Shown piece by piece: positions 14,546 through 14,911 of a stretch of DNA of 64,000 nucleotides. This DNA comes from Escherichia coli (lineage in GTDB: Bacteria > Pseudomonadota > Gammaproteobacteria > Enterobacterales > Enterobacteriaceae). The translations under genes were made by a program, and so were the position numbers. Within the stretch, counting starts at the first letter, position 1, and each line of letters starts with the position of its first letter. The notes under the pieces were generated by a model, which did no database searches, was not told where the DNA came from, and saw only the letters and a program-made list of their open reading frames with translations. The DNA lies in NCBI RefSeq assembly GCF_003334355.1, contig NZ_QOWP01000004.1. One strand, 5' to 3'.

Positions 14546-14679
14546 CAATATTTTCCTCCCGCGCTAAAGATCACATAATCTTAACAAGAATGTTAAAAAA
14601 TGCTGGACTCAGACAGTAGAGTGTGTGTTATGGTTGACTATAAAGTCAGCGAAGGAAATGCTTCTGGCTTTTAACAGAT

Positions 14680-14782
14680 AAAAAGAGACCGAACACGATT
14701 CCTGTATTCGGTCCAGGGAAATGGCTCTTGGGAGAGAGCCGTGCGCTAAAAGTTGGCATTAATGCAGGCTTAGTTGCCTTGC
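14680..14782 (-). ncRNA. sdsR: SdsR (RyeB), RpoS-dependent Hfq-binding small RNA
   Basis: Minus-strand sequence GCAAGGCAACUAAGCCUGCAUUAAUGCC...GGUCUCUUUUU matches SdsR as I recall it; terminal hairpin GACCGAA...UUCGGUC plus U-run; sigma-S-like -10 (TCTATTCTTAA) just upstream. Confidence 0.85.
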
Positions 14783-14870
14783 CCTTTAAGAATAGATGAC
14801 GACGCCAGGTTTTCCAGTTTGCGTGCAAAATGGTCAATAAAAAGCGCGGTGGTCATCAGCTTAAATGTTA

Positions 14871-14911
14871 AAAACCGCCCGTTCTGGTGAAAGAACTGAG
14901 GCGGTTTTTTT
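14871..14911. terminator. Bidirectional terminator shared by ryeA (+) and yebY (-)
   Basis: aaaa-ccgcc...ggcgg-ttttttt, with A-run and T-run on either side. Confidence 0.7.

Follow-up and report, generated by a model that had tools for sequence, protein, structure and literature searches.

Assignment of the pphA–yebY gap of an Escherichia coli chromosome to the known sdsR/ryeA small-RNA locus

Identification of the sdsR/ryeA locus

The window, a 64,000 nt stretch of DNA, is part of an E. coli chromosome, and the gap between pphA and yebY in it is almost certainly the sdsR/ryeA locus, in which two small-RNA genes converge and overlap completely. It has been known since 2001, and published work already covers its ends and promoters, its processing by RNase III, its targets and its behaviour as a toxin-antitoxin pair. 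The present analysis supplies, for the copy in the window, the identity, the coordinates, the structure, the promoter and terminator sequences and the conservation pattern, together with the absence of a coding signal. The features of the locus, in window positions, are as follows.

13889–14545, minus strand: pphA (protein phosphatase 1), from its open reading frame and the K-12 annotation; downstream of sdsR
14604–14634, plus strand: putative ryeA sigma-70 promoter region; TGGACT at 14604–14609, a 19 nt spacer and an extended -10, TGtTATGGT, at 14626–14634
14642–14911, plus strand: RyeA (SraC), approximately 261–272 nt; contains the whole complement of SdsR (14680–14782)
14646–14837, minus strand: 63-codon open reading frame with a TTG start, listed mechanically; not a gene
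14676–14820, plus strand: Rfam match to SraC_RyeA (RF00101), 175.1 bits against a gathering score of 37, model positions 1–145 of 145, E = 2.9e-40
14680–14782, minus strand: SdsR (RyeB), approximately 102–103 nt, from Rfam, identity to K-12 and RACE
14779–14680, minus strand: Rfam match to SdsR_RyeB (RF00111), 114.4 bits against a gathering score of 38, model positions 1–100 of 100, E = 1.8e-21
14686–14714, minus strand: SdsR terminator hairpin, an 11 bp stem with a 7 nt loop, followed by CUUUUU at 14685–14680; from the terminator scan, folding and covariation
14786–14816, minus strand: putative sdsR promoter, with an extended sigma-S-type -10, TCTATTCTTAA, at 14796–14786
14870–14911, both strands: bidirectional intrinsic terminator; A5 at 14870–14874, a bulged stem-loop at 14875–14904 and T7 at 14905–14911
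14941–15282, minus strand: yebY, from its open reading frame and the K-12 annotation; conserved as the gene upstream of sdsR and on its strand

The gene order around the gap was found to be rsmF-yebV-yebW-pphA on one side and yebY-yebZ(copD)-yobA on the other. An Rfam scan of the whole window at the gathering threshold reported two matches in the gap, RF00101 on the plus strand and RF00111 on the minus strand, which overlapped each other; both covered their full models with scores that were 3 to 5 times the gathering score. A 701 nt query spanning the locus matched 5426 of 5426 complete E. coli genomes, with strain MLI023K1 showing 100% identity to it.

On the curated K-12 reference record NC_000913.3, ryeA (b4432) is found between 1923066 and 1923337 on the plus strand and sdsR (b4433) between 1923104 and 1923207 on the minus strand. 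An alignment of the window with K-12 from the pphA stop to the yebY start revealed differences at 18 of 1394 positions and zero indels, and because there were no indels the K-12 annotation could be transferred directly, placing ryeA at 14642–14913 (plus strand) and sdsR at 14680–14783 (minus strand). As far as its sequence indicates, the window copy would depart from K-12 in no feature that could be tested. None of the PGAP-annotated genomes examined carried an RNA feature in the gap, a blank that is due to the pipeline and not to the sequence.

Ends, structure and promoter of SdsR

SdsR in the window was base-for-base identical to K-12 sdsR b4433. RACE in K-12 places its +1 at the position equivalent to 14782, 1 nt further downstream than annotated (PMC6610125, Choi et al. 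2019), and its 3′-ends at +100 to +102, which correspond to 14683–14681 (PMC6610125). The RNA begins with a 5′ stem-loop, followed by a conserved core that stays single-stranded, by a GGCUCU/AGAGCC hairpin and by a Rho-independent terminator. The minimum free energy was -34.8 kcal/mol (z = -4.4 against shuffles) and the three helices were reproduced; in an RNAalifold consensus of 30 Enterobacterales sequences, among the matches listed, compensatory double changes were seen at 8 of the 27 pairs.

Analysis of the region upstream of the SdsR start showed that TCTATTCTTAA has a C at -13 (14795), a T at -14, a C at -8 and an A/T-rich discriminator, with TAA from -6 to -4. A -35-like TGGAAA is present at 14816–14811, with a 16 bp spacer, although the placement of this hexamer is our own. 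The sigma-S selectivity features with which the sdsR promoter has been described (Fröhlich et al. 2012, PMC3333887) are matched here, and the promoter is predicted to be of the sigma-S type. Sigma-S dependence of sdsR has been reported in K-12 and in Salmonella, both in vitro and in vivo (PMC6610125; PMC3333887).

Ends, promoter and terminator of RyeA

By coordinates, the overlap between SdsR and RyeA is complete and amounts to 103 nt. Transcription of RyeA across sdsR would be expected in this strain from what is known of K-12, in which the RyeA ends were mapped by primer extension, 5′ and 3′ RACE and in vitro transcription (PMC6610125). The mature 5′-end corresponds to 14642, which among three neighbouring starts lies furthest downstream, and the 3′-ends at +261, +263, +269 and +270 correspond to 14902, 14904, 14910 and 14911 respectively (PMC6610125). 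At both ends the window sequence is the same as that of K-12. Two substitutions relative to K-12 were found within RyeA, 14847 T>C and 14862 G>T, both of which are in the 3′ part that does not overlap SdsR. The fold of the whole RNA gave z = -3.3 against shuffles.

The ryeA -10 sits 7 nt upstream of the start at 14642 and the promoter is identical to K-12 from 14602 on; the assignment of the hexamers is our own reading and they should be regarded as putative. Mutation of the -10 abolishes RyeA in K-12 (PMC6610125). At -41 of the promoter there is a further difference from K-12, 14601 C>T, and the T is the minority allele, an exact 61-mer match being present in 172 of 5424 genomes. The idea that this substitution recreates the upstream -10 of the Shigella/Salmonella type found no support and was dropped, because in a cross-genus alignment the base at this position simply varies, with an A-tract on one side and the conserved TGGAC box on the other.

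The terminator hairpin downstream of RyeA gave folding energies of -20.6 (plus strand) and -19.8 kcal/mol (minus strand), with z ~ -4.5 on each. The 3′ RACE ends of RyeA and the ends of the in vitro transcripts fall at this terminator (PMC6610125), which is located 30 nt past the yebY stop on the minus strand and probably also serves yebY. A terminator scan did not pick up the RyeA/yebY hairpin, which such a generic scan misses because of its bulge and loop. Similarly, both the sdsR and the ryeA promoter escaped a consensus promoter scan, whose sole promoter-like hit (14957 to 14930, minus strand) was at chance level, with 1 found and 1.0 expected. As the consensus scans missed these elements, both promoters and the RyeA terminator rest on K-12 mapping and folding.

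Most of the original prediction agreed with these results. It had put SdsR at 14680–14782 on the minus strand, which is exact by the RACE start at 14782, and it had correctly recognised the terminal hairpin (14686–14714, then CUUUUU) and the sigma-S-like -10 (14796–14786). RyeA on the plus strand with SdsR fully nested in it was borne out by RF00101 and by the transfer from K-12, and the pphA/yebY context by the open reading frames and the K-12 annotation. The bidirectional terminator that it had placed at 14871–14911 as the end of RyeA folds on both strands and coincides with the RACE end at 14911. It had also called the locus previously described, as the curated K-12 genes b4432 and b4433 and the literature since 2001 show, and had proposed an alignment to the SdsR and RyeA references; both full Rfam models match here, and K-12 sdsR and ryeA align with no indels. 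Of the range that it gave for the pair, 14655–14911, the end stands, but the start does not, as RyeA begins 13 nt earlier at 14642 and the promoter at 14604–14634 lies outside. The RyeA ends, which it had left as not resolved by sequence alone, had been mapped experimentally in K-12 in 2019 (PMC6610125).

Conservation of the locus among relatives

A search of a species-representative genome collection with an SdsR-core pattern returned at least 120 loci (approximately 120 species). Among the matches listed, SdsR was near-invariant and always downstream of yebY; tblastn placed the yebY stop 177–231 nt from the SdsR core in nearly all of the listed Enterobacterales loci that extended that far. 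Among the loci sampled, pphA was directly adjacent to sdsR only in E. coli and one Citrobacter; elsewhere among the matches listed it was 0.5–6 kb away or was not found.

Per-position identity to the window was calculated for 47 Enterobacteriaceae among the matches listed. In this set SdsR showed 0.92–1.0 and the sdsR promoter 0.85, while the RyeA-only 5′ segment showed 0.35 and the middle of the RyeA-only 3′ part 0.45. The terminator stems were conserved at ~0.9 with a variable loop. The ryeA promoter module, TGGAC-N19-(TGn)TATG(G/T)T, was found in 26 of the 51 Enterobacteriaceae loci among the matches listed, and the distance from its -10 to the sdsR 3′-end ranged from 18 to 83 nt across the loci listed, being 46 nt here. 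It was present in 0 of 43 loci from other Enterobacterales and 0 of 19 from outside the Enterobacterales among the matches listed, all of which have SdsR.

The strand on which the structure is maintained was compared by counting wobble pairs: 23 cells were pairable only on the SdsR strand (G·U) and 3 only on the RyeA strand (A·C), with two helix-end pairs set aside; given the relatedness of the sequences and a structure predicted on the SdsR strand, this count is supportive and not decisive. It was used in place of an energy-based test of strand asymmetry in the terminator region (21 against 21, p = 0.73), in which trimming of the T-run had truncated several hairpins.

These data independently reproduce the published view that sdsR always follows yebY with a variable 3′ flank, that sraC is conserved essentially only within its overlap with sdsR, and that SdsR is the primary product (PMC3333887).

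The 3′ module of SdsR (UAGCGCACGGCUCU-loop-AGAGCC-AUUyCCCU-terminator) was also seen in Aeromonas, Shewanella, Aliidiomarina, Bowmanella and Paraglaciecola, where the 5′-ends are unrelated. As the Rfam model already scores these sequences above its gathering threshold, SdsR-like copies in Shewanella, Aeromonas and Alteromonadales were rejected as a novelty. The presence of sdsR in 'many gamma-proteobacteria' has been reported (PMC3333887).

Proposed function and mutual control

The following account of function, including sigma dependence, RNase III cleavage, interference, pphA read-through, targets and toxicity, is carried over from experiments in K-12 and Salmonella by sequence identity. SdsR would be transcribed from its sigma-S-type promoter in stationary phase and end at its own intrinsic terminator. 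According to the literature, and as SdsR here is identical to the K-12 RNA used, it would act in trans with Hfq and repress targets such as the tolC, mutS and yhcB mRNAs (ompD in Salmonella). RyeA would be made from a sigma-70 promoter during growth, run antisense across all of sdsR and its promoter, and stop at the bidirectional terminator shared with yebY. In vitro, E-sigma-S transcribes sdsR and E-sigma-70 transcribes ryeA, and both transcripts end by intrinsic termination (PMC6610125).

Each RNA would destroy the other through a 103-bp SdsR-RyeA duplex that is cut by RNase III, and convergent ryeA transcription may in addition hinder initiation and elongation from the sdsR promoter. Co-expression of SdsR and RyeA leads to mutual degradation and ryeA transcription interferes with sdsR; inactivation of either -10 box causes the loss of that RNA and de-repression of the other (PMC6610125). 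Among the stationary-phase dsRNA clusters captured by p19, the RNase III-cut duplex from here ranked first in abundance (PMC7373196). Transcription that continues past the SdsR terminator would yield an sdsR-pphA transcript and so bring pphA under the same switch; K-12 pphA is expressed mainly by read-through from the sdsR promoter (PMC6610125).

According to papers that cite Choi 2018, SdsR in excess is toxic by way of yhcB and the cells are rescued by RyeA; for this reason the pair is put in the type VIII (RNA-RNA) toxin-antitoxin class. SdsR-RyeA is one of two validated type VIII loci in TADB 3.0, whose criterion for the SdsR-RyeA subtype is a location on opposite strands at a distance below 0 bp; in the window the two genes lie on opposite strands with a 103 nt overlap. 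Type VIII behaviour would be expected of the window copy on the strength of K-12.

Comparison with known systems

The window shares with K-12 sdsR/ryeA (RyeB/SraC) the same SdsR, -10 regions, 5′-ends, terminators and neighbours (pphA and yebY), and differs at the two RyeA positions and the one ryeA promoter position given above. SdsR-SraC of Salmonella and Shigella has the same SdsR, sigma-S promoter architecture, place downstream of yebY and reciprocal expression, whereas its sraC -10 is approximately 35 bp further upstream and its SraC approximately 35 nt longer (PMC3333887). In most of the non-E. coli Enterobacteriaceae among the matches listed, the ryeA -10 is 64–83 nt from the sdsR 3′-end, compared to the 46 nt found here.

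The window is no different from the type VIII prototype SdsR-RyeA, an RNA toxin and an RNA antitoxin that overlap on opposite strands (TADB 3.0). Unlike creTA, which is also type VIII, SdsR-RyeA has no CRISPR-Cas association. CJnc190/CJnc180 of Campylobacter jejuni likewise comprises a trans-acting sRNA that is opposed by a cis-encoded antisense sRNA via RNase III (PMC8687705), although the sequences and organisms are unrelated and the likeness is one of analogy only.

Alternative explanations

That the resemblance to SdsR and RyeA is due to chance or decay, and that no stable RNA is made, has a negligible probability: no support for it was found, the PGAP blank being a pipeline effect, and it is opposed by E-values of 1e-21 and 1e-40 over full models and by SdsR and both -10 boxes being 100% as in K-12, where the RNAs have been mapped. 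Slightly less remote, but still very improbable, is the coding of a protein or micro-peptide, either by the 63-codon frame on the minus strand or by RyeA frames of 13–38 codons. Such frames do exist, and one of 13 codons at 14721–14762 (MALGREPCAKSWH) is intact in 47 of 47 and in 56 of 56 Enterobacteriaceae loci among the matches listed. It lies wholly within the invariant SdsR core, however, and its ATG is within the GGCUCU stem with a purine run just 2 nt upstream. Among the loci listed from other Enterobacterales and beyond, this ATG is lost in 8 of 64 and the stops scatter, the frame shifting in distant lineages because the hairpin loop has 4, 5 or 6 nt. RyeA frames of 38, 23, 14 and 13 codons survive in 2 to 9 of 47 loci among the matches listed. 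The 63-codon frame begins 55 nt upstream of the SdsR transcription start, and among the matches listed only 1 of 47 Enterobacteriaceae retains its start codon and 1 of 47 an intact frame. No CDS is annotated in the interval in NC_000913.3 or in the PGAP records. From this comparison we conclude that the interval is without a coding signal. The original prediction was right to call the 63-codon frame spurious, and the short-peptide potential that it had left undecided proved negative in the comparison across relatives. It had thus recognised a real non-coding locus where PGAP is blank and where the open reading frame track shows a spurious 63-codon frame, and the two points that it had left, the RyeA ends and the coding signal, are settled.

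The main alternative to a two-RNA switch concerns RyeA. The physiological weight of RyeA at native levels is disputed, and only SdsR may be under selection, RyeA then being for the most part an antisense by-product, with a promoter and a 5′-end that insertions have reshuffled and an antitoxin role that is an effect of overexpression with little physiological weight. We regard this as unlikely, yet as deserving serious consideration. It would agree with the low identity of the RyeA-only segments (0.35–0.45) against that of SdsR (0.92–1.0), with the lean of the wobble-pair asymmetry to the SdsR strand, and with the lack of the ryeA module at the 43 other Enterobacterales and 19 non-Enterobacterales SdsR loci among the matches listed. 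In published work, deletion of the sraC promoter raised SdsR only ~1.5-fold and SraC was judged not essential for SdsR control (PMC3333887), and few genes changed in a ryeA promoter mutant (PMC6610125). Against it, the extended -10 module is kept in 26 of the 51 Enterobacteriaceae loci listed despite the varying leader, a ryeA -10 mutation leads to earlier SdsR and higher pphA expression (PMC6610125), and the RNase III-cut duplex is abundant in vivo (PMC7373196); RyeA overexpression also rescues SdsR toxicity, as papers citing Choi 2018 describe it.

Integration at the 3′-end of sdsR

Of the 5426 E. coli genomes, 235 have a split locus. Strain O55:H7 DEC5E of E. coli carries a prophage of approximately 42 kb, which has a tyrosine integrase adjoining sdsR and is flanked by a duplicated core that corresponds to approximately 14680–14710 of the window, the SdsR terminator. 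With the prophage in place, sdsR is made whole by the copy that the phage carries, and 42 kb separate it from the native ryeA promoter. The equivalent of this duplicated core in Salmonella DT104 is the PhiW104 attachment site, given as the final 23 bp of ryeB (Balbontin 2008, as cited in PMC7380047). In contrast to these, the locus in the window is unoccupied, with pphA following directly and the native ryeA promoter in place.

It is conceivable, but in our estimation quite improbable, that the ryeA promoter and 5′ leader are the domesticated remnant of one end of an element that formerly integrated at the SdsR terminator, its attachment site, the 'antitoxin' half having come from repeated integration at the sdsR 3′-end. 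A hint of such an origin is that the ryeA module is confined to Enterobacteriaceae among the matches listed and lies at a variable distance (18–83 nt). Furthermore, three loci (two Citrobacter and Superficieibacter) have, in the 260 nt upstream of the sdsR 3′-end, both the module and a blastn resemblance to the O55:H7 prophage at its integrase-proximal end, and that prophage end bears a TGTGATATAA box at the same position. E. coli's own ryeA leader showed no similarity to the prophage end. Rewriting of the ryeA 5′-end by lysogeny has been noted in published work.

Two further observations were made at this site. Sequence resembling the O55:H7 prophage end adjoins sdsR in approximately 21 of the sampled species among the matches listed, and strain 2017-03-3CC carries an IS10-like element within the 5′ region of SdsR.

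Insertions at the sdsR/ryeA locus

The RefSeq/PGAP annotation of the gap between pphA and yebY (14,546–14,940 of the window) was blank in the E. coli genome stretches L001 and L002. As PGAP leaves this gap empty, a track based on ORFs contains just a spurious ORF there. Among the three annotated records inspected, ryeA and sdsR were annotated only in the curated K-12 record NC_000913.3. Two insertions were found at this locus in other E. coli genomes (L numbers denote genome stretches used for comparison):

L005:12376-13880, ISVsa5 insertion in E. coli 2017-03-3CC; site corresponding to window ~14775
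L004:10794-12100 and L126:17775-18000, prophage insertion in E. coli O55:H7 DEC5E; site corresponding to window 14680-14710

The prophage of E. coli O55:H7 DEC5E (NZ_CP038383.1) is approximately 42 kb, lies between pphA and sdsR, and carries tail genes, recET, xis and a tyrosine integrase gene. The duplicated core found at both of its ends is the SdsR terminator, and sdsR in this strain is made whole by the copy that the phage supplies. This copy has a perfect A-U pair at a position that is G.U in the window. The native promoter of ryeA, together with the initial ~69 nt of RyeA, has been left at a distance of 42 kb. A split sdsR/ryeA locus was present in 235 of 5426 complete E. coli genomes. 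ISVsa5, an IS4-family (IS10-like) element, lies within the 5′ region of sdsR in E. coli 2017-03-3CC (NZ_AP027783.1); this should inactivate SdsR and split RyeA.

The ryeA and sdsR promoter regions

A putative ryeA promoter module was located in the window:

14604-14634, TGGAC-N19-(TGn)TATG(G/T)T; orthologous positions in L008, L014, L058, L093, L120 and other loci

Among the matches listed, this module was kept in 26/51 Enterobacteriaceae, and its spacing from the sdsR 3′ end varied between 18 nt and 83 nt across Enterobacteriaceae loci. A blastn comparison was made between the 260-nt stretch upstream of the 3′ end of sdsR and the O55:H7 prophage end that lies next to the integrase. The module and similarity to this prophage end coincided in three loci (two from Citrobacter and one from Superficieibacter), a hint that the ends of mobile elements may be the source of ryeA 5′ regions. 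The window also has a T at 14,601, position −41 of the ryeA promoter, where K-12 has a C; an A-tract lies to one side of this nucleotide and the TGGAC box to the other. The T is a minority allele, as exact matches to the 61-mer around it were confined to 172 of the 5424 E. coli genomes.

Upstream of sdsR, the blocks AAAATGGTCA and AAAAAG (14,827–14,845) showed conservation of about 0.8–0.9 in 47 Enterobacteriaceae among the matches listed. Located at about −45 to −63 from the SdsR start, outside the core promoter, they could act as an UP-like element or be bound by a regulator.

The SdsR 3′ module outside the Enterobacterales

The SdsR 3′ module, which comprises UAGCGCACGGCUCU, a hairpin, AUUyCCCU and the terminator, was also found in Aeromonas, Shewanella, Aliidiomarina, Bowmanella and Paraglaciecola among the matches listed, at the following loci:

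L020, L025, L029, L038, L043, L051, L063, L065, L069, L070
L074, L086, L091, L102, L103, L106, L108, L110, L121, L125

The terminators of these copies carry compensatory changes, and the yebY neighbour was absent from them among the matches listed. All distant copies scanned whose match was not clipped by the locus end exceeded the gathering threshold of Rfam RF00111. As the distant copies keep the 3′ module with unrelated 5′ halves, the 5′ target-pairing part of SdsR seems to be lineage-specific.

Other Rfam matches in the window

MicL is a sigma-E-dependent sRNA, and a full-length copy was identified by its Rfam match alone. Two further matches, naRNA4/CssrE and ES036/CssrF, were near the gathering score:

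50211-50518, minus strand, MicL, full-length (RF02654, 370 bits)
35847-35922, minus strand, naRNA4/CssrE (61.1 bits; gathering score 59.5)
46233-46275, plus strand, ES036/CssrF (45.5 bits; gathering score 37.6)
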